Of a stretch of 64,000 nt of DNA, positions 6,877 to 34,818 are shown one piece after another (position 1 is the first letter of the stretch; each line of letters opens with the position of its first letter). Source of the stretch: Elusimicrobiota bacterium (GTDB lineage: Bacteria > Elusimicrobiota > Elusimicrobia > UBA1565 > UBA9628); assembly GCA_016207665.1 (NCBI GenBank), contig JACQPG010000055.1:35184-99183 (forward strand), in the 5' to 3' direction. The notes below the pieces were generated by a model. The model did not search any database, was not told the origin of the DNA, and saw only the letters and a program-made list of their open reading frames with translations. The translations under genes and the position numbers were made by a program.

Positions 6877-6920
6877 AACATCCTCCCTTGGCTTTATCGC
6901 GCGTATCCTCGATAGAGTAG

Positions 6921-9900: not shown

Positions 9901-11678
9901 GCGGTGCTGACGAGGTTGATCTCGGTCTCTCCGTGGCTTTCATCGGTGCGCCCCCAGTAACCGGATTCGACGCGCATCCTATAGATGGCGCCGCTGCCCA
10001 CGAAGACCTGATAGTTATAGGAATTCGAGCCGCTGGCACTGATCACGGCGAAATTGCCGGGATTGCAGCGGCCGGTGCTTTGCTGGCACTCTCCGCGCAG
10101 CACGATGGTGATGGGATCATTGCGAAGGTCGGCGTTTTCCGAGAAGCTCAGCGTGCCGTGCAGCCTTCCCGTCTGATTGGACTGGGTATTGACCACGATC
10201 GTGATGGAGGAGACCCCCAAGCCTCCGATATCGACGCCCTGCCCATTGTAGATCCTGATCATCTGCCCGACCGCGACATCGGCGGCGTCGGTGCTGATGG
10301 TCAAGCGCAGATCATCGCTGCCGCAGTGGTCCTGCCCCCATTGCCAATTGCCGTCCGCTCCGGCGTTGAACATGATGCCGCGGTCCGTGAACTGGCTCCA
10401 CATACTGACGGAGAGGTTGCCGCTGGGCAGTCCGTCGACCAGGGCATAGCCCGTGGTGGCCCGCTTGTTCGAATTCGTCATGGCGGGCCGGCTCATCTGT
10501 CCCGGCGGATTGCAGCCGCCGCCGCCGTCAATCTCCCAGCGATCCCAGTCCGGCCAGACGTTCACTCCGGCGCCGGCCACGGGGTTGCCGTTCTGGTCCC
10601 TCACATAGACCGACAACTTGCCGATACTCGGCGGAGTCTTATTGAGCCTGACCTTCTTAATTTGAGGAGTACCTGTATAAAGGAAATCATTGATACCCGG
10701 AGGCGCGCCGAAGCCAGCCTTGGTGCTGAAGTGCCCGTCAAAGCAACCGGTTTGATTGCAATTACCGAATATCGACGCGTAATATGTCGTTCCAGGGACC
10801 AGGTCGAAGAGCTGGAAGCGGCCGTTGTTGTCCGAGTTGGTGAAAATAGTGCATGTCGAAGGACAGAAGCTGTTGACGAATTCGAATTTCACGTGTGACC
10901 AGGGGATGAAGCTCTCCGCCGAGGTGGTGTCGATCACCACTCCGTCGACCGAGACATTAGCCGCCTGGCCCGCGGAGGAGGATCTCGCCTCCTGCTCGAT
11001 CCTTTGAGGGGGCAAACCGCATTGATTGATATCGAGCGCGGCGTTGGTTACCGCGTCCGCCACGACCGCCGTGGCGATGGTCGAGTTGCAGCCCTTTTGC
11101 AGGGTGGGATCGTACACGTCCACCTCATAGGTGTTGGCCCCGGCCACCGGGATATTGGAGACCAGCATGTGACAGGTCCCGCCGCCGTCGGTCAAGCAAA
11201 GCCCGAAATTGACCTCGCGATTGGCGGTGGCGAGCTTATTGCGGATCGAGCCGAACAAGAAAGCGTTGGGGCTGGCGTTGCTCACCTGCGCGCGTATATA
11301 ACCTCCGCTGGTCACGCCCGCGGAGGAGATCACCACGGTGCGGGCGGTCGGGTTGCCCGGGACCTCGATATGCAGATGCTCGGGATCAAAAAACTGATCC
11401 TTCAAGATCGGAAAGAAACCATGCTTCTCGGCGACGACCTCGAAGGGTCCGCTTGCCAACCCGGCGAAAGAAGCCACGCCCGAGGCGTTGGTCAATCCCG
11501 TGCGGCTGTTGGTAGCGTCAGGCCCGCCCTCGCCGAAACGAACCACGTAGACCGTCGCCCCCTGGATCAGGGCTCCGTTCTCGTTGGTCACGGTCACGTC
11601 TATGTTCTGCGCGGAAGCCGCTCGAGCTCCCGCCAGAATCCCCAATCCGATCAAAAGGGAAATGATCCTTCTCGCCAT
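6921..11678 (-). CDS. Giant (~1585 aa) secreted/surface protein with repeated carboxypeptidase-regulatory-like beta-sandwich domains and a type-A T9SS C-terminal sorting domain (Por secretion tail)
   Basis: Start at ATG 11678 with SD GGAGGG 6 nt upstream. Signal peptide MARRIISLLIGLGILAGARAASAQ. Multiple repeats of the NIDVTVT..G..I.GATV / GVYSVAGLPPGNF / GAYRLDNLVPGNTYRI type. Last ~90 aa FPNPFNLSDKTVNLV...VIKYEVP...VHIRIYNLAGELVQEL...YAAWDGRQRDGKDVANGVYYGVI...TFKMAVIK matches the Por_Secre_tail consensus. Confidence 0.85.
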   Translation of the reverse strand: MARRIISLLIGLGILAGARAASAQNIDVTVTNENGALIQGATVYVVRFGEGGPDATNSRTGLTNASGVASFAGLASGPFEVVAEKHGFFPILKDQFFDPEHLHIEVPGNPTARTVVISSAGVTSGGYIRAQVSNASPNAFLFGSIRNKLATANREVNFGLCLTDGGGTCHMLVSNIPVAGANTYEVDVYDPTLQKGCNSTIATAVVADAVTNAALDINQCGLPPQRIEQEARSSSAGQAANVSVDGVVIDTTSAESFIPWSHVKFEFVNSFCPSTCTIFTNSDNNGRFQLFDLVPGTTYYASIFGNCNQTGCFDGHFSTKAGFGAPPGINDFLYTGTPQIKKVRLNKTPPSIGKLSVYVRDQNGNPVAGAGVNVWPDWDRWEIDGGGGCNPPGQMSRPAMTNSNKRATTGYALVDGLPSGNLSVSMWSQFTDRGIMFNAGADGNWQWGQDHCGSDDLRLTISTDAADVAVGQMIRIYNGQGVDIGGLGVSSITIVVNTQSNQTGRLHGTLSFSENADLRNDPITIVLRGECQQSTGRCNPGNFAVISASGSNSYNYQVFVGSGAIYRMRVESGYWGRTDESHGETEINLVSTAVARLDMNFVPAGRLTGKLLKPDGTVWQPENSGNQFTSASLSASGDNVEGGGWTQVTDAGEYTLGGLIPGTYRMRVYGWGKFPYANPTTNQKATIVANQDTSTDFKLVDGTYMAISVATASLQPISFVTSSREPRPVETWSVLTVPPGTLFKGEKLTELLDAWDNYINYYPPGQGYCGPSGGFCTVRMPSPGIYDMYLLRKGDFMSGDANSTHMFLTILTSSKNVIIDSARATASVFAEGGQPVQAVPVNLTPSPAQNALGQVTLQGTVIANNIFRQADFQNLGGDFDNFMKFIPLISVFDASGSLKSAGFVTPNPQNFTQAMDEQLNQSLANNDWNLFQQTFGGLAFGYQLRGLIPGQTYLAVLTTPNYPPYQTKVTMSVDGSTTTLNFNLDQLVGSGATLSGVVTTTNSVVIANASVAIEAENYPKKIVTTNASGVYSVAGLPPGNFKILASASGYAPSAANKDVFGTGTLTQNLSLTAAAGVISGTVYSQRLPFAKTQPNAEIIAYDDTFNGQNPTSELPLFRVKTSSVGAYRLDNLVPGNTYRIAVKYPGKYVITQSTVAPAAGIDFTLASKPLRVEVTCAPNPPKFQCTVANPGDFDDGQAWYHQATVPFSVAVSTPIMDAQEQVDGSLVLNIPLADLSDNVIYNMHIVANPNSPRPVIQDLRFSKSHGGGAKKDIDDELLGDSDSDAAGRAQNKVTIDDSGNDASAITIPPGSMLPISSGAIPSCSLSNVDVDASTIASIVGTVGRAAFASDVYQLDIASVNFTAKGFQVCLSYDKNQTSLTDAAVHHYNSVSGKWEVVPGQQTLDPIKGTVCARVLGLTSVSGVQSSPMRALFDGRSHRINPLSHVAGHVESGSFGILKPSLTGAAYSGSIFKVFNFPNPFNLSDKTVNLVHGGATTSLTTRGTVIKYEVPSSVGSSRVHIRIYNLAGELVQELDQGEQSGGSYYYAAWDGRQRDGKDVANGVYYGVISMGGVKAKDATFKMAVIK

Positions 11679-11774
11679 GGTTGCCCTCCGGGTTATCGCT
11701 TCGCCAAGAAAAAAAAGAACGTCCCGTCTCTCGCTCACTTGATTATCTAGTTAAATCCGGTCCGAAGATGCGTG

Positions 11775-12048: not shown

Positions 12049-12070
12049 ACAGAAATAACGAGCCCCCTCT

Positions 12071-12142
12071 TGCGCTCGCCAGGAATCGAACCTGGATACC
12101 GAGCTTCGCAGGCTCGTACACTATCCATTGTGTTACGAGCGC
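12071..12142 (-). tRNA. tRNA-Arg, anticodon GCG (CCA not encoded)
   Basis: Hand-folded cloverleaf: GCGCTCG TA ACAC AATGGATA GTGT A CGAGC CTGCGAA GCTCG GTAT CCAGG TTCGATT CCTGG CGAGCGC A. 7-bp acceptor, GG in D-loop with A20 (Arg identity), U33, A37, TTCGATT T-loop. Confidence 0.75.
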
Positions 12143-12163
12143 AAGAGAGGGCCTGAAACGGGA

Positions 12164-13366
12164 TTATAGCTCTTTTCTGTCGAGCCACGCGATCGTCTCG
12201 ACGTGCTCGGTATGCGGGAACATGTCGATGATCTCGGCTCGCTCGAGGCAATAGGCGGGCTCGAGGGCCTTGAGATCGCGCGCCAAGGACTGCGGATTGC
12301 AAGAGACATACAATAGGGCCCTGGGCCTCTTGTCGAGAATCATCGCCAGGGCCTTGCCCTGCAACCCCGAGCGGGGCGGGTCCACGATCACGACATCGGG
12401 ATCGGCGCCCAGCAGGGGCGCGGCCATCAGCTCGACGCTTCCCGCGAAGAACTCCACGTTGGAGATGCCGTTGAGCGCGGAGTTGGCGCGCGCGTCGAGC
12501 ACCGCGCTCTCATTGAGCTCCACCCCCCAGACCTTATCGCACGATCCCGCGATGGACAGGGCGATTCCTCCGCCTCCGCAATAGAGATCAAGAGCCGTGC
12601 GCGCTCTTTTTTCTTCCAGCCAGGAGAGGACGATCCCGTAGAGGAGTTCGGCGCCCCAGGTATTGGTCTGAAAGAAAGAAAGGGGCGATATCTGGAACAG
12701 TATCTCGCGGGAGCCGATCTTGATCGACTCGGTGATGCGGCCGGAGCCCGAAAGCCTCTCGATCCGATCGGGTATGGCCGTGTCCGACAGTTTCTCGTTG
12801 ATTCCTCTCAGAACGGTGGTGGCCGGATAGACCGAATTTATGGCACTTATTAAGGAAAGCTCATCCAGGGGTCCCTGGGAGGTAAGCAGCATCACCATCC
12901 TCTCCGGGCGATTCTTGGCTTCCCGGAGCACCAGATGGCGCAAGAAACCCCGATGCCGATGCGCATTATAGGGCTCATACCCGCCTGCCGCGGCCCAGCG
13001 ACGCAACTCCGTCAAAAGAACGGCCGCTTCGGGGGAAAGCAGATAGCATTCCTCAATGGAAAGCACTTGATGCCAGCGGCCCCTGGCCTTGAGGCCCAAG
13101 CGTAGCCGGGGACCCTCAGGGATCGGGGGATAGACGTCCCCGAAGCTGAACTCCATCTTGTTGCGATAAAACCAGGGCTTGGGCGAGGCATGCGCGGGCA
13201 AGCGCTCAAGGCGGAAGGGAGCCAGAAGCTCGCCCACGGCCTTGGCCTTGGCCGCCAATTGGGACTCATAGCTCCTGTCTTGGAGCGAGCAACCGCCGCA
13301 GGAGCCGAAATGCCGGCAACGCGGCAAAGGCTCAAGAGGAGAACTTAAAGAAGCAGACGTCTCCAT
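12164..13366 (-). CDS. 23S rRNA (uracil-C5)-methyltransferase, RlmD/RumA (TrmA) family
   Basis: N-terminal Fe-S cysteine cluster CRHFGSCGGCSLQ, SAM-binding DLYCGGGGIAL, C-terminal catalytic region VSCNPQSL. Start codon ambiguous (13378 or 13366); both overlap ychF. Confidence 0.8.
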   Translation of the reverse strand: METSASLSSPLEPLPRCRHFGSCGGCSLQDRSYESQLAAKAKAVGELLAPFRLERLPAHASPKPWFYRNKMEFSFGDVYPPIPEGPRLRLGLKARGRWHQVLSIEECYLLSPEAAVLLTELRRWAAAGGYEPYNAHRHRGFLRHLVLREAKNRPERMVMLLTSQGPLDELSLISAINSVYPATTVLRGINEKLSDTAIPDRIERLSGSGRITESIKIGSREILFQISPLSFFQTNTWGAELLYGIVLSWLEEKRARTALDLYCGGGGIALSIAGSCDKVWGVELNESAVLDARANSALNGISNVEFFAGSVELMAAPLLGADPDVVIVDPPRSGLQGKALAMILDKRPRALLYVSCNPQSLARDLKALEPAYCLERAEIIDMFPHTEHVETIAWLDRKEL

Positions 13367-14402
13367 CCTTGACCACATAATCCTTGCCCTCGGACCTGAT
13401 GAGGCCCTTTTCCCGCAGAATCGATTCCCTTTCGTGCTTGTCTATGTCCGAAAAGGAATAGACCTCGGCCCTGATGAACCCCTTCTCGAAATCGCTGTGG
13501 ATGACCCCGGCGGCTTGAGGGGCCCGCGCGCCCGCCGGGATGGTCCAGGCCCTGACCTCGTCCTCTCCGGCCGTGAAGTAACTGCAAAGACCCAACAGGC
13601 GATAAGCCGCCACGATCACCCGCTCAAGCCCGGTGACCTCCAGACCCATCTCCTTCATGAAGACCTGGCGATCCGCCTCTTGAAGCTGCGCGATCTCCGA
13701 CTCGAGCTTCGAGCAAAGGGTGACGGATTCCCCTCCTCGCTCCGCGGCCATGGCCTTGAAATCCTCCAGCATCTTGGGATCCGCCGTCTCATCCGTATTG
13801 CCCACGTAAAGAACGGGCTTGGCGCTGAGCAGGAAGAAATCCCTGATCTGCTTCGGGTCCACTCCCAAGCGACGGGCGGGTATCCCCTTCTCGAGGCCTT
13901 GCTTGACCTTATCGAGCACCGCGAGAGTCTCCCTGGCCGCCTTATCCCCGGATTTGGCCTTGCCCGATACTTTTTCGTACTGTTTCTCGAGGCTGCTCAA
14001 ATCCGCGAGCATCAATTCGGTCTCGATGATCTCCACATCCCGTCGGGGATCGACGGCTCCCAAGGTATGGACCACGTCCGGGTCGCGAAAGAGGCGGACC
14101 ATATGGATGATCGCGTCCACCTCGCGGATATGGGAGAGGAACTTATTGCCGAGACCCTCTCCCGAGGCCGCCCCCTTGACCAGCCCGGCGATATCGACGA
14201 AACGCACGATGGCGGCCGTGGTCTTTTTCGGCTTGAACAGCCCGCTGAGCCTGTCAAGCCTGCTGTCGGGAACTCCGACCACGCCTACGTTGGGCTCGAT
14301 CGTGGTGAAAGGATAGTTCGAGGCGGCGGCATGGCCCGAGGTCAAAGCGTTGAAGATGGTCGATTTTCCGACGTTGGGAAGCCCGACGATGCCGATCTCC
14401 AC
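13332..14402 (-). CDS. ychF: Ribosome-binding ATPase YchF (Obg-family GTPase)
   Basis: G1 motif GLPNVGKST, NYPFTTIEPN, DIAGLV, and the C-terminal TGS domain (...GFIRAEVYSFSDIDKHERE...KDYVVKDGDV). Confidence 0.9.
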   Translation of the reverse strand: MEIGIVGLPNVGKSTIFNALTSGHAAASNYPFTTIEPNVGVVGVPDSRLDRLSGLFKPKKTTAAIVRFVDIAGLVKGAASGEGLGNKFLSHIREVDAIIHMVRLFRDPDVVHTLGAVDPRRDVEIIETELMLADLSSLEKQYEKVSGKAKSGDKAARETLAVLDKVKQGLEKGIPARRLGVDPKQIRDFFLLSAKPVLYVGNTDETADPKMLEDFKAMAAERGGESVTLCSKLESEIAQLQEADRQVFMKEMGLEVTGLERVIVAAYRLLGLCSYFTAGEDEVRAWTIPAGARAPQAAGVIHSDFEKGFIRAEVYSFSDIDKHERESILREKGLIRSEGKDYVVKDGDVCFFKFSS

Positions 14403-14534
14403 GTCTTATTTTATCAAATGGGCCGGGTCGGACTCTCAGAGCCGAAAGTCCCATAATGCCCTGGGCCTTCTAGCGCGAGATGGCCGGACCGAAAGTCTCA
14501 CGCTCGTTTTATTTCATTGAAGTAGAATCGACGC

Positions 14535-17462
14535 ATGAACAGGATCTCCTCGCTGCTGCTTGCCGCCTCTTTATTGTTCTCGTCGATCCAACCCGCTTTC
14601 GCCGCTTCCCGGCAGAGACGCGCGGGCCCGGGCTCGTCCCGCGGACCTGCCGCCGGAGCCAGACGGCCGGCGCGCGTTCAAGGCCCCAGGACCGCCCAGT
14701 CCATCCAGGCTCCTGCCCTGCCGGCTTCCGCCGTGAGCGCCAGCGCCGAAAGACCCGACGATCCCCGACGGCGCCAAGATCCCGGTCCCGACGATGTCGA
14801 TGACGGCGACGGCGGCGGGCGCCGAGACCCGGACATCGACGAGCCCGTCGACCCAGAGCGCGATGATGGATTTCTCCTCAACACATTGGAAAACGTCGAG
14901 ACCTCCTTGGCCAAGCTTGACCGCATATTCGGTGAGAACCGGATCGCGGCTCGCGTCGCCAAGTTGCCCACGATCGATCTCGCTCGCGCGGGCCTGCATG
15001 AGCTGCTGGTCGCCCGGCAGGGAGCCCTTCTGCGCGAGATCGCGCTGGAACGCAGGCTCTCCATACACCATGCCCATGCGATCGAGGACTCGGGCAACGC
15101 TCATACCCATCATCGGAAGGCCCGCGAGACCCAGCAAGACATAACGGCCCTCAAAGCCCACATCTCGAGCATCGAAGCGCGGATCAGGGAGGTCCAAGAG
15201 GCGATACTCCAGCAACAGCCGGCGGATTCGGTCGCCATGCCCCACTCGCTGGAAGACGCCGCCCAGCCGGCTCGGCCTCGCCGATTCAACATCCCCGTCG
15301 AAGACGAGCCGGCGCAGGCGGATTTGACCCCTTGGGAGAAGGCGCTCGCCTTGGGCCGTCGATTGCATCTCAAAGGGTTCAAGATTCCGCCGGTGGAAGC
15401 CGGTCAACCCGTCCGCGTTATCGGATCTTGGACGGAGAAGGAGGTCAATTATAGCGCTGTAGGGATCCAACTGGCTCTCAGCCAGGAAAACGGGCTCGTA
15501 GCCACCCGGAACGGCCAAACCCTCACGCCCGAAGAGCTGATGAGCTGGCTGGAAATCGCGGAGATGGCGGGGCTTAAATCCGCTCCCGCGCCCTTCCAGA
15601 TCCCCGAGAAGGATCGGGCGGCCGCGGAAGCCGGCAAAAAACTGCTCTCGTGGCGCGTTCCGCCCCACATCTTGAACCACTCGCTTCAGGCCGTGATGGG
15701 CGCCAATAAGAGGCGCTTCACGCTTTCGCCCGACGTGGTTTTCTACTTCTTCCGCCAGGGCGTGCCCCTGGCCACGCCCGTCGGACAGATATTGGCTCAA
15801 TTCTTGGCGGCTTTGCGCGAGGAGGGACGCGAAAGAGCCTTGAGCCAGGAGGAGCTTTATTCGTTGGGCGTAGAAATCGAGCAGGAAATCCCCCGCTATA
15901 GGCCCGAGGAAGCCCAAGAAAGCGCCCAGGATCTCTATCGCCGCCTAGCCGACAATACTTTCTACCGGCCTCTGGTGGACTCCCCAGTGGGCATAGACCT
16001 CGGCCGGCCCGGCCTAGATCTGGCCGGCTATCTACGCAAGCAATTCGACGCTCTGCGCGGCAAGCTCAATAACGCCTTGAGCCAGGGCGCGGATTTGGAG
16101 ACCCTGCAAGATCCGGCTCAGGCCCTGCGCTTCGCCTGGACCGCCCTCGCTCCGCTATCCAACGAATTGAGGACCATGCTGCACCGCGATGGATTCTCTT
16201 TCTTAAAGTATGGCTCTGCTCACGAATGGGAGGTCTGGCGCATGCTCCCCCTCGGAGAAGCAGTCTTCTCCCTGGGACTGAACGATATCATCCGCCGCCG
16301 CGCGCAACGGGGCGGCAGGGGCTACGCGGTGCCCGTGATCGCGGACTCGGGCGTCGTCGATACCATACATCCGGACAACTCGAAAAACGTCATCGACCTC
16401 GACCGCGCCGGCCGGGAAATCCCTACCGAGCAACTCCTGGCCAAGGCTCTCGCGGCGCAGGCGGCGAAGAAAAAAGAGGAAGCCAAGAAAGGCGATCTCT
16501 CCCCGGAGGCGGTCGCCCGCCTGGCCGAAGGCACCGAGACCCAGTGGAAAAAGGGCGGGGAAGATATACAGGCCCACGCCCATGCCACCGCCATCGCCAC
16601 GCCTCTAGGTCTGGCGGCGGAGGTCTTGGGCCGGAAGATCCGTTCGGTGGACTTGCCCAACTTCCAGGGCGACTCGGACAAGGTCCCGGAGGGCGATCGG
16701 GAGAACTATTTCTTCGATGAGCTCAAGCGCTCGGTGGAAGCCGCGATACAGCACATTCTCAGCGAGGACGAGCTCTCCATACCGGTGGTGAACTTCAGCT
16801 GGGGCGGCAGTTTCGACAGCCGCATCGGAGAATGGATGAACGAGGTCGCCGCGAAATACGGGGCGATATTCGTCGCGGCTTTCGGCAATTCCGGCCCGGG
16901 ACGCCATCAGGAAACGGTGCCGTCCTACGCGGATGCGGTCGACACCATCGCCGCGACCAACGGGCTCAACGCCGAGGCCAATTTCACCTCGGGCGGCGGT
17001 CTTGGAATACGCACGGCCAGCGGCAAGCGCGCCGAGCGCCCGACCCGAGCCGCCCCTGGCGGTGTTTGGGGAGCCAACAGCTTCCTGCAGCCCGGGGTGC
17101 AGAACGCCGACATGGGAGTGATATTCGCTCCGGAAACCAGCGGGCGCTATATGCATGACCGCGGCACGTCCTTTGCCGCTCCCCTGGACGCCATGGCGTT
17201 GACCTTCATGGCGGATGAGGCGGTGTTCCAGGCCCTTGAGTTCTTCAAAGCCAGCGGCTTGAGCGAGAGGGAGAGCCGGGCGCGGGTCAAGAGCCTGCTC
17301 CCTTCCTTGGCCCGTCAAGTCAGCCTGGCCGCCACCGCGGCGGCCGAGATGATGATCGGAGTGCCGCGCCGTTATCAAGGCAACGGCGCGATCAGGCCTT
17401 CCCGGGCCTTGGAATCGTTGACCCAGCGGGTCCGAGAAATCTTGGAGTCGAGGACATCATGA
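14535..17462 (+). CDS. Secreted 975-aa protein with C-terminal subtilase-like (peptidase S8-like) domain
   Basis: Signal peptide MNRISSLLLAASLLFSSIQPAFA. C-terminal third carries S8-like motifs VIADSGVVDTIHPD (Asp), FVAAFGNSGPG (Asn/oxyanion) and GTSFAAPLDAMAL (Ser); the His-motif region is divergent. N-terminal ~550 aa have no recognisable domain and include a coiled-coil stretch. Confidence 0.65.
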   Translation: MNRISSLLLAASLLFSSIQPAFAASRQRRAGPGSSRGPAAGARRPARVQGPRTAQSIQAPALPASAVSASAERPDDPRRRQDPGPDDVDDGDGGGRRDPDIDEPVDPERDDGFLLNTLENVETSLAKLDRIFGENRIAARVAKLPTIDLARAGLHELLVARQGALLREIALERRLSIHHAHAIEDSGNAHTHHRKARETQQDITALKAHISSIEARIREVQEAILQQQPADSVAMPHSLEDAAQPARPRRFNIPVEDEPAQADLTPWEKALALGRRLHLKGFKIPPVEAGQPVRVIGSWTEKEVNYSAVGIQLALSQENGLVATRNGQTLTPEELMSWLEIAEMAGLKSAPAPFQIPEKDRAAAEAGKKLLSWRVPPHILNHSLQAVMGANKRRFTLSPDVVFYFFRQGVPLATPVGQILAQFLAALREEGRERALSQEELYSLGVEIEQEIPRYRPEEAQESAQDLYRRLADNTFYRPLVDSPVGIDLGRPGLDLAGYLRKQFDALRGKLNNALSQGADLETLQDPAQALRFAWTALAPLSNELRTMLHRDGFSFLKYGSAHEWEVWRMLPLGEAVFSLGLNDIIRRRAQRGGRGYAVPVIADSGVVDTIHPDNSKNVIDLDRAGREIPTEQLLAKALAAQAAKKKEEAKKGDLSPEAVARLAEGTETQWKKGGEDIQAHAHATAIATPLGLAAEVLGRKIRSVDLPNFQGDSDKVPEGDRENYFFDELKRSVEAAIQHILSEDELSIPVVNFSWGGSFDSRIGEWMNEVAAKYGAIFVAAFGNSGPGRHQETVPSYADAVDTIAATNGLNAEANFTSGGGLGIRTASGKRAERPTRAAPGGVWGANSFLQPGVQNADMGVIFAPETSGRYMHDRGTSFAAPLDAMALTFMADEAVFQALEFFKASGLSERESRARVKSLLPSLARQVSLAATAAAEMMIGVPRRYQGNGAIRPSRALESLTQRVREILESRTS

Positions 17463-20104
17463 AACAGTTTCGCCTCTGCCGTATTTTATTTGCGGCCCTC
17501 ATCCTGGGCTCGAGCCTGGCTCCGGCCGGACAAGCCCTGGCCTCCGGCCAGGCGCGGCGCGGCCCGACGCGCATCGCGCGTCTAGGCGGTTTCAGGAATT
17601 GGCTGGCCTCGCCATTGACCCACAAGACGAATGCTCCCGTCGCGACGCGAACAAGTCCCTCACTGGCCCCGATGGCGGCACCCGCGCGAGCATCCGTAAC
17701 CGGACCCGCTCGCGACGCCTCCGCTCTTTCCGATGAGAACGCGCCTTTGCAAGCGGCCGCCACGCCGGACGCTCCCTCAGCCGAAACGGCCGAGCCTTTC
17801 CTCGGCCGCCTGTATCGGCTCGGGGCTTCGCTGTCCCGACTCTGGCGCGTGGACCTTCCCGGAAATCTCAACGAGCTCATGACGCAAGGGGGAAGCGCGC
17901 CGGCCGGCGCCTTCGGATTCCGACCCCAGACCGAGCCGATCGAGATCAACGGGGTGGAACTGCGCCTCGGCCGCATGCCGGCGGCCCCGGATCCGGGGCG
18001 GACAGGGCCGGTGGTGACCCATGATCTAGCTATCCCCGGCTCCAGGACGATCGGGGGCAATCTATCCACGCCGAGAGTGATAGACGCCGATCCGGACGAT
18101 ATGGGATCGGTGGAGCTGGCCATACGGCGGCTCATCGACTCGGACGTGCCGACATTCGGCGTGAGCACCAGCGAATTGGCGCTCGATAACCCGGTCAACA
18201 AAGTCCCCGGCCGCCACGTTCCCGGACTCGCGGATCAGGCCGACGCCATCTATTTAAGATTTTGGCAACACAAGAACGGCATCAGGGTGCAGGACAGCTC
18301 GTTGAGCTTCACCCTCTTCATCGAGGAAAGCAATGGCGCCCGCGCGCTGAAGCTCTACTCCTACCAGGGAAAGACCTTCCCGGACATACAATTGACCGAC
18401 ACGGCTCCCCTTCCCGAGGAGCGGCTCATAGCCGCCGCGCGGGAACATTTGCGCCAAATGGGCGTCCCCGATGACACGCCCCTGGAGCTGCTGCCGCTCG
18501 AAGAGGTCATCCTCTACGTGGAGGATGCCTGGCGCGTTCTCAAGATGTACTCGATCAACGGCTATCCCGTCGTCATCGCCGTCGAGGTCAGCACCGGCAA
18601 GGTATTCTCCTGGGACAACCGCATCGGCGCGGCCGCGCGCATGGAGCTTGCCGCCGGCTGGACCATGGCGGCGCGGCTTGAGGGCAACGACAAGAGAGAC
18701 AAGGACGGGGGACCCCTGCTCAACCAGTTCGCTCTCCCGTTGCTCAAAGTGCGGGTCAAGCTTCCCGACGGACAATTCAAGGACGTCGAGACCGACGCCC
18801 AGGGTCGTTTCACGGTGCCGGAACTGGCCGAAGGCCAGGAAGTCGAGTTCCAAGCCGTGCTCTCGGGCCGATACGTGACGGTCAACAACAAGGCGGGAGA
18901 GCCTATACGCCTTTCGGGCGCGATACGGGGAGGCGAGACCAAGACCCTGGTCTTCAACTCGGAGGGAGCCGATCAAAAGACCGTCGCTCAGGTCAACGCC
19001 TATTACTGGTACAGCTATCTGATCACCTGGTGGAGCCGGGAAGGCGCCGAGGACGCCAAGATCAAGGGCCATGTCCCGGCCAATGTCAATATCCCCAGCT
19101 CCTGCAACGCCTACTATACGCCGGGCAATCCCAGCACTAATTTCTTCCAGGCCAGCAAGGAGTGCGCCAACACCGCCAAGCCGGGCGTCATCCTGCATGA
19201 AGGCGGCCATCACATCATCACCAAGCTGGCCGGGCCCTTCGCCAATCGGGGCTATCACGAGGGCGGGGCCGATTATTTCTCCATGGCCATACTCCGCAGC
19301 CCCATGATCGGCGAGAATTTCCTTCTGGGCCGCAATCCCAGCTGGATACGAGACGGCAGGAACGTCTATCAATACCGTTCCAGCGACGAGGAGCACGATC
19401 AAGGCCAGGCCTTCATGGGCTTTGGCTGGAAGCTCTACGAGAATCTGTTCAAGACCTATGCGGACGAGGATAAAGCCTGGACGATCGCCAACAGCCTGGT
19501 GCTGGCCGTGGTCTACGCCGGAGCCAAGGAGATCCCGGCCATCCTAGCCCAGGTGTTGCTGCGCGACATGGACAAGGAAGGCAAGTTCCGCCATGAAAAT
19601 GAGATTCGCGCCGCGGCCAAGGCTCATGGCATCGACCTGCCCTCGAGCACGACCCGCCTGGAATTGCTGGCCCGCTGGGCCTTCGACCGCTTCCGCCACG
19701 TCCGCATGATCGAGTCCCGGGCCTTGCCCCAAGCCTTGGGCTCCGCGGCCCTGGCCGTCTCCATGAGCGTGCTGCCCCAATCCCAAGGCTTCGCGACGCA
19801 GCCCAAGTTGATCACCCGGCAAGTCGCCTTCGAGGCCGGCGCAAGGACGCGCGAGCAATTGCGCCGCGAGATCGAGAGCGTCTTCGGCTTCATCCATGGA
19901 GAATACCTACTCTACCCCGAGGAATGGAATCGGCTCTATCCGGGCTTCCGCCCCCTCTCCAAGGAGATCCAGGAAGAGGACGGCCGGCTCATCGTGACCA
20001 TCACGGGCCTCAAGCGTTCCGTCGAATACGCGGTCGAGCAGCTGCGGCGGATCAACGTCCGACACCCGCAGGCCGGCGCCCCGCGCGTCATCGCGAGCCT
20101 TTAA
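17459..20104 (+). CDS. Secreted zinc metalloprotease, thermolysin-like (M4-type HExxH...E) with FTP/PepSY-like propeptide region
   Basis: Signal peptide MKQFRLCRILFAALILGSSLAPAGQALA. Zinc site VILHEGGHHIITK (HExxH) with a downstream third-ligand-like HEGGADYFS. PepSY-like segment ...EVILYVEDAWRVLKMYSINGYPVVIAVEVSTGKVFSW. ATGA overlap with the upstream S8-like gene (translational coupling). Confidence 0.7.
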   Translation: MKQFRLCRILFAALILGSSLAPAGQALASGQARRGPTRIARLGGFRNWLASPLTHKTNAPVATRTSPSLAPMAAPARASVTGPARDASALSDENAPLQAAATPDAPSAETAEPFLGRLYRLGASLSRLWRVDLPGNLNELMTQGGSAPAGAFGFRPQTEPIEINGVELRLGRMPAAPDPGRTGPVVTHDLAIPGSRTIGGNLSTPRVIDADPDDMGSVELAIRRLIDSDVPTFGVSTSELALDNPVNKVPGRHVPGLADQADAIYLRFWQHKNGIRVQDSSLSFTLFIEESNGARALKLYSYQGKTFPDIQLTDTAPLPEERLIAAAREHLRQMGVPDDTPLELLPLEEVILYVEDAWRVLKMYSINGYPVVIAVEVSTGKVFSWDNRIGAAARMELAAGWTMAARLEGNDKRDKDGGPLLNQFALPLLKVRVKLPDGQFKDVETDAQGRFTVPELAEGQEVEFQAVLSGRYVTVNNKAGEPIRLSGAIRGGETKTLVFNSEGADQKTVAQVNAYYWYSYLITWWSREGAEDAKIKGHVPANVNIPSSCNAYYTPGNPSTNFFQASKECANTAKPGVILHEGGHHIITKLAGPFANRGYHEGGADYFSMAILRSPMIGENFLLGRNPSWIRDGRNVYQYRSSDEEHDQGQAFMGFGWKLYENLFKTYADEDKAWTIANSLVLAVVYAGAKEIPAILAQVLLRDMDKEGKFRHENEIRAAAKAHGIDLPSSTTRLELLARWAFDRFRHVRMIESRALPQALGSAALAVSMSVLPQSQGFATQPKLITRQVAFEAGARTREQLRREIESVFGFIHGEYLLYPEEWNRLYPGFRPLSKEIQEEDGRLIVTITGLKRSVEYAVEQLRRINVRHPQAGAPRVIASL

Positions 20105-20108
20105 GATA

Positions 20109-20136
20109 TTGACTTCTTTTTGGCGCCTGTTATACT
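20109..20136 (+). promoter_or_regulatory. Candidate sigma70-type promoter (TTGACT-16-TATACT), essentially leaderless, for the 533-aa OMP gene
   Basis: TTGACTtctttttggcgcctgtTATACTgcgggcgctATG. The -10 ends only 9 nt before the ATG at 20146 and there is no SD. Confidence 0.35.
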
Positions 20137-20145
20137 GCGGGCGCT

Positions 20146-21747
20146 ATGAAGAAAACATCCCTGGGAGTCGCGTTTTTATTGACGGCGCAGTCCGCCGGCG
20201 CCATGGAGTGGCAAACTCTGGGCCCGCGGGCCATGGGCATGGGCGGGGCTTATACGGCGATCGCCGAAGGCCCCATCACCCAATATTGGAATCCGGCGGG
20301 ACTGGCTGAGAGCAAGGGGCGCTACGGCTTCGAGATCCCGATCGGCGCCAAGGCCGAGTTCACCGGCGGCGTGCTCAAGAACGCCAACAATCTGGCCGAT
20401 CTGGCCGGCAAATACGATCAGATCACCGCGGCCCAGCAATCGGGCACCGCCGGCGCCGTGGACGCGGACAAGGTCGGCGCTTTCTACAAGGCCTTGGCCA
20501 ATATCTCCGAGATGAACCAGCCCGGCAAGGGTGTGCTCGCCGATATCTCCGGCGGGGGCGGCATAAGGGTGGGACGCTTCGCCTTGTCGGTGCTCAACTA
20601 CACCGAGATCGGCGGCTCGCCTTTCGTCGACACGGTCAACGTCGGACTGACCGGCATTAGCTATGCCGCCGCCAATACCACCCTCTGCGGCGGAGCTGAT
20701 TGCACGATCGCCCCGGCTAATGCCACCAACCAGGCCTCGGCCTCGAGCATAGCCAGCGCGATCGGGGCCTCCGGCTACACGGCCATCAACTCCATCACCG
20801 GCGGGGCTCTGGTCGGCGGAGGCATCGACGACGAGACCGAGCTCGGCAATGCCTTGGTCAACATGGCCACGACCAACGGCATGAGCCCCGAGCAGATAGC
20901 CTCGGCCGCGGCCTCGATCAGCCAGAACGCGGCCGTGGTAAACCCTATACTGCAATCGGCGGCGGCCGGCAACTCCTATCAGAACAACCAGACCAATCTG
21001 ACCTTGCGCGGGGCCTCCTTCACCGAGATGGCCCTGGGCTACGGCCAGGCGCTGCCCTGGGTGCCGGGGCTCAAATTGGGAGGCAATTTCAAGCTGATCT
21101 CGGGCAATATCGGCTATCAGCGCTATCAAGTGCTCGACAAAGCCTCGGGCTCCTCGGGCGGGGACGCGCTCAAGGACTTCAAGGCCAACACCGAGACCAC
21201 GATCAAACCGGCCATAGATCTGGGAGCTCTCTGGCATCTCAAGTCCATGCTGCCCGTCCTGCCTTTCAATCCTCGCGTCGGCCTGGTCGCCCGCAATATC
21301 AACAACCCCAAATTCAAGCAGCCGGCCAGCGCTCGAGCCAACGGCGATACCGCGGATTATCCGCTCAATCCTCAATACCGGGCGGGCGTGGCCCTCAGCC
21401 CCTTCGCCTTCTGGCACGTGGCCATGGACGGCGATCTGAGCAAGAACAACACCGCGGTGCCCGGCTTTCAGTCCCAGAAGGTGGGGTTGGGCACGGAGAT
21501 CAACGTGTTCAACCGCTCCTGGATCAACATCCCTCTGCGCGCGGGCCTTGCCAAGAACATGGCGGACTCGGGCTCGAAGCTGGCCTATTCCGGCGGCTTC
21601 GGCCTAAACTTCCTCCATTTCGTCTTCGACATCGGAGGCTCGATCAGCTCGGACAGGACCGAGGTCAAGACCGGCTCGGGCTCGAGCGGCAGCGAGAAGG
21701 TCCCCTCAAACTTCTCGGTCGCGGCCCAATTGGGCTTCGTCTTCTGA
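20146..21747 (+). CDS. Large (533 aa) PorV/FadL-like outer-membrane beta-barrel protein, paralog 3 (TraF-like family resemblance)
   Basis: Signal peptide MKKTSLGVAFLLTAQSAGA. Same N-terminal signature as the two smaller paralogs (GPRAMGMGGAYTAIAEGPITQYWNPAGL). Gly/Ser/Asn/Ala-rich extracellular-loop-type insertions. C-terminal ...SVAAQLGFVF terminal-aromatic OMP signature. Confidence 0.65.
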   Translation: MKKTSLGVAFLLTAQSAGAMEWQTLGPRAMGMGGAYTAIAEGPITQYWNPAGLAESKGRYGFEIPIGAKAEFTGGVLKNANNLADLAGKYDQITAAQQSGTAGAVDADKVGAFYKALANISEMNQPGKGVLADISGGGGIRVGRFALSVLNYTEIGGSPFVDTVNVGLTGISYAAANTTLCGGADCTIAPANATNQASASSIASAIGASGYTAINSITGGALVGGGIDDETELGNALVNMATTNGMSPEQIASAAASISQNAAVVNPILQSAAAGNSYQNNQTNLTLRGASFTEMALGYGQALPWVPGLKLGGNFKLISGNIGYQRYQVLDKASGSSGGDALKDFKANTETTIKPAIDLGALWHLKSMLPVLPFNPRVGLVARNINNPKFKQPASARANGDTADYPLNPQYRAGVALSPFAFWHVAMDGDLSKNNTAVPGFQSQKVGLGTEINVFNRSWINIPLRAGLAKNMADSGSKLAYSGGFGLNFLHFVFDIGGSISSDRTEVKTGSGSSGSEKVPSNFSVAAQLGFVF

Positions 21748-21750
21748 GGG

Positions 21751-22824
21751 CTAGGCCTCGGAGCTGTTGAGCAGCCAGAAAGCCACGGCTCCGAAGGCCA
21801 GGTTGGGTATCCAGGCGGCGACCCAAGGCGGGAAAGAGCCGCTCTGGCCCAGCGCTCGCCCGACCTCGATGAACCAGAGATAGAGGAAGGACAGGATCAA
21901 AGCGGCCGAGAAGCTCAGCACCCGCCCCGCCTGGCGCAATCTCATCGCCAAGGGTATCCCGAGGGCGCAGATCACGAGATTGGTGAAGGGATAGGCGATC
22001 TTATCGTGCACCGCCACCTGCACGGGCCGAGTGGGCAGGCCCAGGCGGGCGACCAGCCGGGAGTGGCGGCGGAGCTCGCCCAGGCTCATCTCCTCGGGCT
22101 TCTTGGGATTGGTCGCCAGCTGGCGCGGCGAGATGGCGAGCTCCGAGCGCAGCTCGCTGAAGGGCTTTTCCACGATGGCCTCTCGCTCGAATCGGCGCTC
22201 GACCCCGTCATAGAACACCCAGACGCCCAGCCCCGCGTCCCATAAGGCCAGCTTGGCGTCGAGTTGCCTTTCGATACCGCTGAGGCGCACGATCTCCAAT
22301 ATCGGCCTTTCCATGCGGCCGTCCTTGGGAAAGAAGAACTTGGCCCGTATGAACTGCCCCGGGCCGCACATCAGGGCGAAATCCACTTTTTTGGTGTATT
22401 CCCAACGGGGAGCGATCTGCTCCTGCCATAAGCGCTGGGCGCGTTGATAACAGGCGGGAAGCACGGTCTCCTGGGCGATGAAGCTGATCAGCGTGATGGC
22501 GACGGCGCACCACAGCAAGGGGCGCCAAAAATCGCGAGGCTCGAAGCCGCTGGCCTGGGCCGCTATCCACTCTCCGCTGCGGATCAGCCCCGTCACCGCG
22601 ACCAAGGTCGCCAGCAAGGTGGCCATGGGAATGACGCGCACCGTCCAATAGGGCACCTCGAGCCATAGGTACTGGAGAATGATCCAGAGAGAGGCCTTGC
22701 TGCGCATGAGGGCGTTCATGCGGTTGAGCATGTCTCCCAGGAATATCAGTATGGCGAAAAGGCCCAGCCCGTACAGGAAAGGCTTGAAAAAGCGCTTGGC
22801 CATGTACCAGCTGAATATCTTCAT
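21751..22824 (-). CDS. lptG: LPS export ABC permease, LptF/LptG (YjgP/YjgQ) family
   Basis: 357 aa, six-TM permease pattern with the typical periplasmic domain between TM3 and TM4. Second gene of an adjacent pair, so named by synteny. Confidence 0.7.
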   Translation of the reverse strand: MKIFSWYMAKRFFKPFLYGLGLFAILIFLGDMLNRMNALMRSKASLWIILQYLWLEVPYWTVRVIPMATLLATLVAVTGLIRSGEWIAAQASGFEPRDFWRPLLWCAVAITLISFIAQETVLPACYQRAQRLWQEQIAPRWEYTKKVDFALMCGPGQFIRAKFFFPKDGRMERPILEIVRLSGIERQLDAKLALWDAGLGVWVFYDGVERRFEREAIVEKPFSELRSELAISPRQLATNPKKPEEMSLGELRRHSRLVARLGLPTRPVQVAVHDKIAYPFTNLVICALGIPLAMRLRQAGRVLSFSAALILSFLYLWFIEVGRALGQSGSFPPWVAAWIPNLAFGAVAFWLLNSSEA

Positions 22825-22825
22825 G

Positions 22826-23953
22826 TTAGCGGAATGCCGCCCTCGCGGTGAGCCACAGCCCCGCGATCATGCCGGCCGCGTCCGGCGCCCAAGGCGCTAT
22901 ATCGGAAAGCGGCTCGTAACGCCGGCCCACTCCGATCCCCAGCGCGATGAGGGCGTAGAATCCGAAAAGCACCAGCAAGCTGATCACGAAGCCCAAACTC
23001 CGGCTATGGCGGCCCATCTGCACGCCCAGCGGAGCGCCGATCCAAAAGAAGATGAAAGTCGAAAGAGCGGCCGCGCTTCGCACCGCGGCCTCGACCCTGT
23101 ATTCCACGCGATGCTGCGGCTCGGTCTGGGGGCTGGCGATGCGGCCCCTGAGCTGCGCGGTGGTCAATTCCTGTATGTCGGGATTGCGCTGCAGCGGTCC
23201 GGTGGGAACCAGGGGTATGCTCACTCGATAGCGCCGGAAGGTGCCGGCAGAGAACTTGAGCGGATCGGGATTGGGTATCTGTATCTGCCCGTCCTCCAGC
23301 TCGAGCTGTATCTGCCGTCCCTTATCGAGGGACAGGCGTCCCCTGGCCGCCGTGATCCTGAGGCTGCGCTGATCGTTGCCCGGCCCTTGGGGATTCTTGT
23401 CGCCGGTCTTCTGCCTCAACAGATAGACCCCCGCCAGCTCTCCGGTGTCCTTCTTGACCTCGGCCGCCGACAGCTTCCAAGGGCCCAGCTCGATCATGGA
23501 GCTGGGCTCGAGATCCAGACGCATGATCTTCTGGGCGGCCAGGGCCTGTTGTTTGCGGAAGGAATGGAAGCCCTCCGGGCTGGCCTTATGGTTAAGATAG
23601 AGCAGCAGGCCCGACAGCAGCGCCCCGACGGCCAGCAATGGCCAGGTCATCTCCGCGAACGAAAAACCGGAGGCGCGTAACGCCATGATCTCCCCCCGCT
23701 CCGCCAACTGGCCCAAGGAGAGCATCACCGCCACCAGATACGCCATGGGAAGGGCAAGGCTCAGGATGAAGGGCATTAGGCGCGCGAAGCAGCCCGCGAT
23801 CCATAACGGCGATATCCCGCGCATCAAGGCCAGATTGAACAGCTTGAGGAAATGATTCATCAGCAGGACGCCGGCGAACAGGAGCAGGCACAAGAAGAAA
23901 ATCGGCAGGAACTGCCGAAGAAAATAGCGGGGCAATATAGGCACTTGATTCAT
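22826..23953 (-). CDS. lptF: LPS export ABC permease, LptF/LptG (YjgP/YjgQ) family
   Basis: 375 aa. N-terminal RYFLRQFLPIFFLCLLLFAGVLL typical of LptF/G. First gene of the pair. Confidence 0.7.
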   Translation of the reverse strand: MNQVPILPRYFLRQFLPIFFLCLLLFAGVLLMNHFLKLFNLALMRGISPLWIAGCFARLMPFILSLALPMAYLVAVMLSLGQLAERGEIMALRASGFSFAEMTWPLLAVGALLSGLLLYLNHKASPEGFHSFRKQQALAAQKIMRLDLEPSSMIELGPWKLSAAEVKKDTGELAGVYLLRQKTGDKNPQGPGNDQRSLRITAARGRLSLDKGRQIQLELEDGQIQIPNPDPLKFSAGTFRRYRVSIPLVPTGPLQRNPDIQELTTAQLRGRIASPQTEPQHRVEYRVEAAVRSAAALSTFIFFWIGAPLGVQMGRHSRSLGFVISLLVLFGFYALIALGIGVGRRYEPLSDIAPWAPDAAGMIAGLWLTARAAFR

Positions 23954-34809: not shown

Positions 34810-34818
34810 GAAGGTATC

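Follow-up and report, generated by a model that had tools for sequence, protein, structure and literature searches.

A FadL-fold barrel gene behind two secreted-protease genes in an Elusimicrobia bacterium is probably a separate unit and not a dedicated protease exit

In a stretch of chromosomal DNA from an uncultivated Elusimicrobia bacterium (64,000 nucleotides, hereafter the window), two genes for secreted proteases are followed closely by a gene for an outer-membrane barrel, which raises the question of whether the barrel serves the proteases. The encoded proteins have 100% identical counterparts among NCBI Elusimicrobia MAG proteins. A preliminary description of this locus had proposed that it does, as a dedicated exit or anchor. 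If true, this would be a new outer-membrane export or anchoring route, in which a FadL/PorV-fold barrel handles cargo without a sorting domain. The features that bear on the question are listed below.

5959-6924 and 58440-59495, both minus strand: small PorV/PorQ-family paralogs (NF033709, 176 and 191 bits)
13332-14402, minus strand: ychF, ribosome-associated GTPase/ATPase (Pfam MMR_HSR1 and YchF-GTPase_C)
14523-14528, plus strand: tentative leaderless -10 element (TAGAAT) of the protease pair, as read from the sequence
14535-17462, plus strand: S8 subtilase, 975 aa, secreted, with a Sec signal peptide (Pfam Peptidase_S8)
16338-17201, plus strand: S8 catalytic domain, aa 602-889 (Pfam match range), with D604, H681, N785 and S879
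17459-17462, plus strand: ATGA overlap of the S8 stop and the M36-like start
17459-20104, plus strand: M36-like zinc metalloprotease, 881 aa, secreted, with an FTP/PepSY-like propeptide region (family profile comparisons)
19196-19273, plus strand: its active-site segment, HEGGH (H580, E581, H584)...E601...D605
20109-20136, plus strand: sigma-70-type promoter of the barrel gene, TTGACT (20109-20114), 16-nt spacer, TATACT (20131-20136), with TG before the -10
20146-21747, plus strand: FadL-fold outer-membrane barrel, 533 aa, 14 strands, 'long-type' clade (Pfam TraF_2, PF13729)
20209-20304, plus strand: N-terminal hatch (plug) of the barrel, aa 22-53, W..GPRAMGMGGA...QYWNPAGL with the FadL-family NPA motif
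20659-20985, plus strand: extracellular loop-2 insert of the barrel, aa ~172-280, a predicted helical bundle
21751-22824, minus strand: lptG (Pfam LptF_LptG)
22826-23953, minus strand: lptF (Pfam LptF_LptG; E 1e-66 to 1e-71 across both lpt genes)

The three ORFs described earlier (975, 881 and 533 aa) are all present on the plus strand, and so are the reported ATGA overlap between the protease genes and the 41-nt gap before the barrel gene (20105-20145). The overlap, with GAGGA 5-6 nt upstream of the ATG, indicates translational coupling, and the S8 and M36-like genes probably form a two-gene pair that would also be co-transcribed. Both proteases carry Sec signals, and the statement that they lack a T9SS C-terminal sorting domain (CTD) also stands, as neither gave a Pfam or NCBIfam CTD match; their C-termini show no resemblance to that of the neighbouring 1605-aa T9SS-CTD protein. 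On the left, ychF, whose product is 63-81% identical to that of the same-position gene in related loci, anchors a conserved syntenic block. On the right, lptG and lptF are convergent with the barrel gene, the facing stop codons lying 3 nt apart, and further peptidase genes (M20 and an HtrA-like protease) are found downstream. We suggest that the window most probably holds two separate units that are adjacent by chance, namely the protease pair and an independently transcribed gene for a widespread, housekeeping-type membrane protein that is no private exit for the proteases.

The 975-aa protein matches Pfam Peptidase_S8 with 44.7 bits (cut-off 21.8), and the identical protein is named 'S8 family serine peptidase' by NCBI. 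When it was locally aligned with subtilisin BPN', D32, H64, N155 and S221 corresponded to D604, H681, N785 and S879, respectively. The DSG, GNSG and GTSFAAP motifs noted previously are present at D604, N785 and S879, and the subtilase-like call, which the lack of a catalytic His would have contradicted, is upheld by the intact D604/H681/S879 triad. The triad, the oxyanion Asn and the motifs, including H-x-H, are shared with S8 subtilases such as subtilisin BPN' and tripeptidyl-peptidase II, but the window protein has inserts of ~45 aa between Asp and His and of ~30 aa between Asn and Ser, and adds an N-terminal extension of ~600 aa. This extension matches no domain model up to ~aa 600 and includes a stretch rich in R, D, P, A and G at ~aa 26-120. 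The S8 domain is very divergent, with a best PDB match at E 2e-4 and partial PDB alignments that span the GNSG region. A word-index homolog search with the protein returned only itself, and the gene has no homolog in any of ~170 related loci. Judged by sequence comparison, the subtilase is a divergent orphan S8 enzyme, and its gene stands at the locus in this genome only.

The 881-aa protein itself has no Pfam (Peptidase_M36 included), NCBIfam or PDB sequence match. Pfam M36 matches 34 of 48 aligned family members, with E-values down to 2.2e-8, and a profile of the family finds the catalytic domains of fungalysins (E 2.7e-8 to 1.6e-4, with 7qp3 at 2.7e-8) and the propeptide of thermolysin 5a3y (E 1.8e-4). 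The earlier assignment as a thermolysin-like enzyme with a PepSY/FTP-like propeptide was thus right in its thermolysin-type gluzincin and propeptide parts, while the M4-like label has to be revised, M36 being the closer of the two families. The HEGGH (580-584) and EGGADYF (601-607) motifs are in place, and all 48 aligned sequences (alignment A1) share H580, E581, H584, E601, D605 and H646; HExxH and the downstream Glu in ExxxD, which define MA(E) gluzincins, are therefore kept family-wide. HExxH, the Glu zinc ligand and ExxxD are also shared with the M36 fungalysins (7qp3, 7z6t and 4k90) and M4 thermolysin (5a3y). The Glu ligand lies 17 residues past the second His, compared with a spacing of 20 in thermolysin. 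No domain model matches the last ~140 aa at the C-terminus. While a word-index search found one weak match and an exact-sequence look-up no record, an exhaustive search gave 1529 cluster representatives, showing a large family of M36/M4-related metalloproteases that nevertheless escapes the present Pfam and NCBIfam models. This bacterial family has expanded in Elusimicrobia, where genomes carry several paralogs as well as tandem copies. By these profile comparisons, the metalloprotease belongs to this family, a distant relative of M36 fungalysin and M4 thermolysin, and its gene is an old resident of the locus.

The 533-aa protein was expected to be a barrel of the FadL/PorV superfamily, and this was upheld at the family level when profile and structure comparisons were used to separate PorV, FadL and TraF-like proteins. 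Pfam assigns it to TraF_2 with 61.2 bits (cut-off 25; aa 47-430, profile positions 2-264 of 264), a match precomputed for nearly all of its homologs, and the best structural match is FadL. The predicted model (pLDDT 90.2) has a 14-strand barrel with an N-terminal hatch in the lumen, as in the FadL/OMPP1/TodX family. Residues G26, G33, G34, W48, N49 and P50 of the hatch are invariant among 65 homologs, and conservation extends to A51 (replaced by Gly in some members), G52 and L53. E. coli FadL (1t16) and P. putida TodX (3brz) likewise have 14 strands, a hatch with the like signature G-x-R-A-x-G-x-G-G-A...NPA, long extracellular loops and short periplasmic turns, the last two as predicted for the window barrel. 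However, the sequence identity to these structures is only 13-15%, Pfam Toluene_X (PF03349) gave no match at E <= 0.1, and the solved structures lack the large helical inserts that the window barrel has in L1 and L2 (aa 76-123 and 184-273). These inserts had been described as Gly/Ser/Asn-rich loops; they do exist, but the high-confidence prediction shows them as helical domains on the extracellular side and not as loops (pLDDT mostly 85-97 for the helices at 184-273). The loop-2 insert contains a C-x4-C pair (LCGGADC) that the long-type consensus retains; the short-type paralogs lack the insert, and their tblastn matches skip query positions ~172-280. Members of the barrel family occur widely in Elusimicrobia and Desantisbacteria (at least 386 clusters). 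An exact-sequence look-up of the database entry identical to the window barrel (P0002) returned no record, and our literature searches found nothing on PF13729 and nothing relevant on Elusimicrobia and PorV together.

The N-terminal signature GPRAMGMGGAYTA...YWNPAGL is indeed common to the barrel and the two small paralogs in the window, which themselves give weak N-terminal matches only to Toluene_X. The same hatch signature is found in PorV/PorQ of the type IX secretion system (6h3i_F; NF033709), but the window barrel is ~200 aa longer and scores 40.7 bits against the PorV_fam cut-off of 90, over aa 26-63 only, which places it outside that family. In addition, its neighbouring genes encode no C-terminal sorting domain, whereas true PorV-like genes, in the window and in one related locus (L010), follow genes for CTD-bearing cargo; the genome carries both T9SS-type cargo and true PorV/PorQ-family genes. 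PorV-like genes beside M36-like genes in three loci (L010, L015 and L021) were considered as a protease-barrel link and rejected, since in L010 and L021 they lie directly downstream of a separate gene for 1160-1169 aa on the opposite strand, whose product in L010 has a weak T9SS-type (FlgD_ig) C-terminal match. Although members of TraF_2 are named 'conjugal transfer protein TraF' at NCBI, the window barrel lies among chromosomal housekeeping genes, and no conjugation genes were found near the barrel in the window or in any locus examined. This label is therefore misleading for these Elusimicrobia proteins, which are chromosomal FadL-fold barrels.

The barrel gene had been described as having its own promoter, with a -10 ending 9 nt before the ATG and no Shine-Dalgarno sequence, and all of these elements are present. 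The promoter agrees with the consensus at 10 of 12 positions, but such agreement does not by itself exceed chance (2 sites compared with 1.6 expected from shuffles). A hexamer of the CATACT/TATACT type is present in 22 of 29 related loci, where it ends 5-9 nt ahead of the barrel start codon, and it is this conserved position, not the consensus match, that gives the promoter its significance. Since the -10 ends so close to the ATG, the transcript would have a leader of at most ~2 nt, and the suspected leaderless expression of the barrel gene is accordingly probable. A leaderless promoter special to the barrel was rejected, because neighbouring genes share the arrangement: a -10 box directly before the start codon is common in the window (YchF, LptF, M20 and S8). 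The TAGAAT before the S8 gene ends 6 nt from its start codon; the consensus scan, for which a -35 is mandatory, did not list it. An intrinsic terminator stands between the M36-like gene and the barrel gene in 19 of 29 loci. No terminator was found there in the window, and with a gap of only 41 nt, read-through co-transcription is possible.

The three-gene synteny was then compared with ~170 related loci, and it was found nowhere else. Among the 43 long-type barrel loci with at least 3 kb of upstream sequence, an M36-like gene lies upstream in one and an S8-like gene in none, so that 42 of 43 lack any such gene; the long-type barrels elsewhere neighbour hydrolase/ABC, PFK, MCP, tRNA synthetase and similar genes. 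On the other hand, an M36-like gene followed by a TraF_2 barrel gene on the same strand was observed in 29 of 54 Elusimicrobia M36 loci, from at least 29 species, compared with 25 Elusimicrobia and 9 non-Elusimicrobia M36 loci without a barrel. This adjacency is the part of the protease-barrel link that stands. It is weakened by three observations: all 29 assessable adjacencies sit in one inherited block (YchF-M36-barrel-LptGF-M20), the barrel next to M36 in other species is a different, short-type paralog, and the terminator described above usually separates the genes. The window barrel groups with the long-type and apart from the short-type sequences with 99/100 bootstrap support in an unrooted bipartition test, and its core identity is 52% to the former and 40% to the latter. 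At this one site, either of two barrel paralogs occupies the position behind the protease gene. The closest relative (L001) carries its barrel gene in inverted orientation with respect to the protease gene, and the same locus occurs with a barrel and no protease (L091, L131, L142, L149 and L153-155) or with a protease and no barrel (L014, L018, L033 and L063). The most persistent neighbour of the barrel across lineages is lptFG: LptG lies downstream in 10 of 37 long-type loci and in 9 of 12 short-type loci, and some of the lineages concerned have an LptG with only 24-31% identity to that of the window.

Based on these observations, we consider it very improbable that the two CTD-less proteases use the barrel as a dedicated exit through the outer membrane or anchor in it, in the way of a PorV-like shuttle or docking site. 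The shared strand, the short terminator-free gap in the window and the recurrence of the M36-barrel order speak for it. Against it stand an S8 gene unique to this genome, a barrel clade that almost always lacks a neighbouring protease, the promoter of the barrel itself together with the terminator in most orthologous loci, the inversion in L001, the barrel-only and protease-only versions of the locus, and a score below the PorV_fam cut-off. A barrel that matches FadL-type transporters, with conserved substrate-site residues, and that occurs apart from proteases had been named beforehand as the outcome that would refute the proposal; the FadL-type fold match and the occurrence apart from proteases were both observed. 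Adjacency in independent contexts combined with co-transcription, the mark of an operon or a dedicated secretion module, was not found. Moreover, a folded protein would not fit through the narrow lumen of a plugged 14-strand FadL fold, and PorV is known to work only in conjunction with the SprA translocon and CTD signals. It is also quite unlikely, though somewhat less so, that the locus is a feeding module, in which the M36-like enzyme, here with the S8 enzyme, digests external proteins, the barrel imports hydrophobic peptides or amino-acid-derived products, and M20 completes the breakdown. The block of M36-like, barrel, (LptGF) and M20 genes is kept in many species, FadL-fold proteins are uptake channels, and the window has the downstream M20 and HtrA-like genes. 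However, the same statistics of barrel-protease independence apply, import of peptides is not known for any FadL-family member, and the presence in the block of YchF and LptFG, which are unconnected with proteolysis, points to simple inherited synteny.

From the conserved lptFG adjacency one might instead suspect a role in envelope biogenesis. By analogy with the FadL-like BamG of the Bacteroidota BAM complex, the barrel might be an accessory of outer-membrane/LPS assembly, which would explain its most persistent neighbour and would fit its wide occurrence in Elusimicrobia and Desantisbacteria. We regard this as unlikely, since barrel and lptG are convergent and hence not co-transcribed, 27 of 37 long-type loci have no nearby lptG, the adjacency could be inherited and not selected, the barrel matches FadL better than BamG, and no BAM or LptD gene is adjacent. 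The recurrent M36-barrel pairing could reflect selection for pairing rather than inertia; still, it is unlikely that the persistence of the barrel at the lptFG/M36 site is functional, either as such a BamG-like assembly accessory specific to the phylum or as a surface docking partner of the M36-like protease. The docking-partner reading, if true, would give the FadL/PorV fold a new function beyond T9SS.

For the barrel as an independent housekeeping-type protein, the predicted fold suggests that it would function as its FadL-family relatives do, forming a plugged channel through which small hydrophobic or amphipathic molecules pass passively. Substrates may be captured by the surface-exposed helical cap, with the NPA hatch inside the barrel; this transport function is inferred from the fold only. 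Both proteases would cross the inner membrane via Sec and then remain periplasmic or surface-located, or exit by another route, with the barrel serving as neither their exit nor their anchor.

As the comparative data argue against the dedicated exit, the practical value of the analysis is corrective: in this case, the adjacency of genes in one genome said little about their function. The persistent barrel-lptFG neighbourhood and the conserved leaderless-type promoter architecture may be useful by-products. Shine-Dalgarno use in Elusimicrobia is ~46% of genes according to a published survey (PMC10783764). Across many Elusimicrobia, we also observed a recurring leaderless-type order of a terminator, then CATACT/TATACT, then 6 nt to the ATG.

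The three genes and the other features considered here lie in the window as follows.

5959-11738, minus strand, gene for a 1605-aa protein with CarboxypepD_reg repeats and a T9SS-type CTD (FlgD_ig/CHU_C), together with a PorV/PorQ-family gene
12070-12143, minus strand, tRNA-Arg(GCG) gene
14535-17462, plus strand, S8 subtilase ORF, 975 aa
17459-20104, plus strand, metalloprotease ORF, 881 aa
20146-21747, plus strand, barrel ORF, 533 aa
23951-23973, both strands, lptF(-)/M20(+) divergent region with the 17-nt intergenic sequence attctataatatcgccg
57587-57658, minus strand, tRNA-Thr(TGT) gene

The preliminary description had placed all three ORFs exactly. The S8 and metalloprotease genes overlap by ATGA as it stated, with GAGGA 5-6 nt before the metalloprotease ATG, the gap from the metalloprotease gene to the barrel gene is 41 nt, and Sec signal peptides are plausible at the N-terminus of all three products as read from the sequences. 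An Elusimicrobia metagenome-assembled genome in NCBI encodes proteins with 100% identity to the barrel, named there 'conjugal transfer protein TraF', and to the S8 protein, named 'S8 family serine peptidase'. All three proteins belong to known kinds, of which they are new and divergent members, and two are already so named in the public record. The surroundings are ordinary chromosome, with a tRNA methyltransferase gene and ychF, and downstream lptG, lptF and genes for an M20 peptidase, a DUF885 protein and an HtrA-like protease. We suggest that the region probably comprises two adjacent but separate units. One would be a coupled pair of Sec-exported proteases, in which the metalloprotease would be long established at the locus and the S8 protease was found there in this genome only, and the other would be a widespread FadL-fold outer-membrane barrel with its own promoter. 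Elsewhere, the tRNA-Thr gene overlaps the GTG start listed for an MsrA-like gene (56970-57593), and the true start of the latter is therefore probably further downstream.

The window metalloprotease itself matched nothing in Pfam, NCBIfam or PDB sequences. When we performed an exhaustive representative search with it, 1529 clusters were found at E <= 1e-3 and 757 at E <= 1e-10, and in an alignment of 48 family sequences the residues H580, E581, H584, E601, D605 and H646 were invariant. Pfam Peptidase_M36 matched 34 of these 48 members, and M4 and PepSY matched one each; against the PDB, the family profile matched solved fungalysins (E 2.7e-8) and the propeptide part of pro-thermolysin (E 1.8e-4). 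Based on the invariant residues, the M36 matches and these profile matches, the metalloprotease is a thermolysin-type gluzincin with an FTP/PepSY-like propeptide as described before, although it is nearer to M36 than to M4. The family is outside the present curated models. It is expanded in Elusimicrobia, where several genomes contain at least two copies, some in tandem (related loci L011, L019 and L025), and its remoter members occur in Planctomycetota, Omnitrophota and Armatimonadota. Among loci L009-L072, unlinked M36-like paralogs were also observed, several per genome (e.g. JACRDQ, DMMY01, JACRDS, JAQUMZ and JBAZVY), and relatives of the window metalloprotease show weak Pfam M36 matches at best.

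Pfam Peptidase_S8 matches the S8 protein at aa 602-889 with 44.7 bits against a cut-off of 21.8, and PDB subtilisins align to it solely around the GNSG region. In a local alignment to the subtilisin BPN' sequence, which we take as a lead, D604, H681, N785 and S879 presumably correspond to D32, H64, N155 and S221, and the same alignment would imply inserts of ~45 aa in the Asp-His interval and ~30 aa in the Asn-Ser interval. Since H64 of BPN' aligns on H681, the catalytic His, whose lack the preliminary description had named as refuting its hypothesis, is present. R, D, P, A and G are abundant in residues ~26-120, and the stretch up to ~aa 600 gave weak, sub-threshold Pfam matches alone. A word-index protein search returned the S8 protein itself and nothing else, and tblastn across ~170 related loci detected no S8 homolog; among the loci fetched, an S8 gene between ychF and the metalloprotease gene occurs in this genome only. 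A T9SS C-terminal domain is absent from both proteases, as had been noted.

The barrel had been left between PorV, FadL and TraF-like assignments, and of these PorV does not hold. Pfam TraF_2 matches it with 61.2 bits (cut-off 25), whereas NCBIfam PorV_fam reaches 40.7 of the 90 bits required and covers aa 26-63 only; the small paralogs at 5959-6924(-) and 58440-59495(-), in contrast, are true PorV/PorQ members with 176 and 191 bits. The AlphaFold2 model, built from a 65-sequence alignment (pLDDT 90.2, pTM 0.83), predicts an N-terminal non-strand segment (aa 20-60) and 14 strands, linked on one side by short turns and on the opposite side by long loops. Loop 1 is modelled as a two-helix hairpin (aa 76-123) and loop 2 as a helical bundle (aa 184-273), and therefore the Gly/Ser/Asn-rich loop insertions of the preliminary description are predicted instead to be folded, surface-exposed helical domains. 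FadL was the top structural match.

Scores of the barrel model against known structures
FadL: 27.1
P. aeruginosa FadL homologue: 25.6
TodX: 25.5
PorV: 25.2
FadL-like subunit of Bacteroidota BAM complexes: 22.7-23.8
OmpG (next fold): 15.5

A hatch signature including W48-N49-P50 is invariant among the barrel homologs, and we take this region to be the NPA motif of the FadL family. From the predicted fold and the hatch motif, we tentatively consider it possible that the barrel is a channel for the passive uptake of small molecules of hydrophobic or amphipathic character.

In order to compare barrel loci in a set unbiased with respect to proteases, we gathered them by exact-protein look-ups and by a metagenome scan with the barrel alignment, and placed the window proteins by tblastn. 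Barrel homologs form at least 386 clusters. Among the best 120, the majority are full-length sequences with 37-64% identity, and nearly all that carry a name come from Elusimicrobia or Desantisbacteria. Long-type barrels contain the loop-2 insert, like that of the window, and short-type barrels are without query residues ~172-280. When loci with at least 3 kb upstream were counted for the M36-like gene and those with at least 2.5 kb downstream for LptG, the long type (68 loci) had an M36-like gene upstream in 1/43 (L004) and LptG downstream in 10/37, and the short type (19 loci) in 4/11 and 9/12, respectively, the latter all within 1 kb. The long-type loci with LptG include lineages whose LptG is just 24-31% identical to that of the window. 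An S8-like gene was absent from every barrel-seeded locus. In the closest relative (L001, 64% identity), the M36-like gene and the barrel gene converge, and therefore the barrel gene is inverted there relative to the window. The same site holds a barrel without a protease in L091, L131, L142, L149, L153, L154 and L155, and in L091 a long-type barrel (52% identity) directly follows ychF. Pfam scans of ten other long-type loci identified alpha/beta hydrolases, ABC transporter ATPases, phosphofructokinase, chemotaxis proteins, glycosyltransferases and kinases as neighbours, and no secreted endoprotease among the immediate ones. In Elusimicrobiales-type lineages, an alpha/beta hydrolase gene lies upstream of the long-type barrel in L007, L094 and L104, and a DrrA-like ABC transporter ATPase gene downstream in L007, L094 and L110, with its permease also in L007; this recurring context may be a hint that the substrate is a lipid or otherwise hydrophobic. 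A TraF_2 barrel in L003 and in L089 is directly flanked by SAM synthetase and two CoA-transferase genes, with sugar-nucleotide genes also in L089. The comparable window block at 33395-39904 (NTP-transferase, phosphomannomutase and SAM synthetase, then ORFs at 38524-39904) contains no barrel, which suggests that the barrel gene shifted between nearby sites in different lineages.

Scanning with the M36-like alignment, one genome per species, returned 80 loci, of which we counted the 54 from Elusimicrobia whose downstream sequence extends over at least 2.5 kb. A TraF_2-family barrel lies just downstream on the same strand in 29 of the 54, always in one block of ychF(-), M36-like(+), barrel(+), lptG(-), lptF(-) and M20(+). 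The other 25 have no barrel, including four barrel-free copies of the ychF/lptGF block (L014, L018, L033 and L063), and none of nine non-Elusimicrobia loci has a barrel beside the M36-like gene. The barrels in this block are of the short type, save L071 (same contig as L004). Short-type barrels split from all others in 99 of 100 bootstrap replicates (neighbour-joining, 374 shared core columns), and the mean identity of the window barrel is 52% to the long type and 40% to the short type. Based on these observations, the window site holds a different paralog from the barrel that accompanies the protease in most species.

The barrel promoter described previously was found at 20109-20136 (TTGACT, 16 nt, TATACT), with 10 of 12 consensus positions and TG before the -10, which ends 9 nt before the ATG without a Shine-Dalgarno sequence. 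Among the 29 loci with a fixable barrel start, 22 show a -10-like hexamer, nearly always CATACT or TATACT, 5-9 nt (mostly 6) before the ATG, where a loose hexamer would be expected by chance at ~12% of such positions by a rough estimate. In 19 of the 29, a long GC-rich hairpin with a T-run lies within 160 nt upstream of the barrel start; where an M36-like gene is upstream, this stretch is the M36-barrel intergenic space. The conserved -10 and the terminators indicate that the barrel gene in most species is transcribed as a unit of its own, leaderless or nearly so and shielded from the protease gene, which supports its own promoter and a leaderless arrangement and argues against an operon with the protease. 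No terminator-like site was found on the plus strand within 14300-22000, so read-through is possible in the window. A nearly identical architecture is found across species ~50-70 nt ahead of the short-type barrel gene and consists of a 12-bp GC-rich hairpin with a T-run, (TG)GCATACT, 6 nt and the ATG (L016, L024, L026, L029, L031, L035, L036, L041, L049, L052, L054 and L070).

The preliminary description had proposed the barrel as a dedicated outer-membrane exit or anchor for the proteases. What chiefly still speaks for any functional link between protease and barrel is the persistence, in many species, of a FadL-superfamily barrel behind the M36-like gene. However, all these cases are one vertically inherited block that also holds the functionally unrelated ychF and lptFG, and therefore the adjacency is not independent evidence. 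With the M36-like gene upstream of a single long-type barrel and the S8-like gene of none, an exit or anchor is highly improbable, and the proposed new secretion role is unsupported. A protease-plus-uptake feeding module, which would draw on the same adjacency and meets the same objection, is quite unlikely. By analogy with BamG (PMC12578637, PMC12611786), the barrel might instead be an envelope-biogenesis accessory tied to lptFG; LptG downstream of both barrel types is consistent with this role, which we regard as unlikely. Two adjacent but separate units remain our preferred reading. Of modest interest are an M36-like family that lacks curated models, a FadL-fold barrel bearing a large helical cap, the conservation of a leaderless-type promoter and the barrel-lptFG neighbourhood.

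A PorV-like gene follows the M36-like protease gene convergently in L010, L015 and L021, and we rejected these cases as a protease-barrel link. In L010 and L021, the PorV-like gene is directly downstream of a separate 1160-1169-aa gene on the opposite strand, whose product in L010 has a weak T9SS-type (FlgD_ig) C-terminal match; the window shows this arrangement too, and these cases therefore give no support for the link. Recurring in other Elusimicrobia, the segments L010:11940-16477 and L021:11866-16489 resemble the window pair at 5959-11738, in which the stop of the 1605-aa protein gene overlaps the start of the true PorV/PorQ-family gene (321 aa, 176 bits) by ATGA. We consider this pair a better candidate for a dedicated barrel and cargo than the proteases and the FadL-fold barrel.

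We also rejected the leaderless arrangement as specific to the barrel, since ychF, lptF, M20 and S8 have -10-like boxes 5-7 nt before their starts as well. Such hexamers, 5-9 nt before the start and without a Shine-Dalgarno sequence, are located upstream of 14402(-), 14535(+), 20146(+), 23953(-) and 23971(+), and transcripts with no leader or almost none seem to be frequent in this genome. In a published survey, Shine-Dalgarno use in Elusimicrobia was ~46% of genes (PMC10783764). In the 17-nt lptF/M20 spacer, -10-like boxes on the two strands overlap and lie 5-7 nt away from their start codons, which would give two leaderless transcripts, each with its -35 inside the coding sequence of the other.
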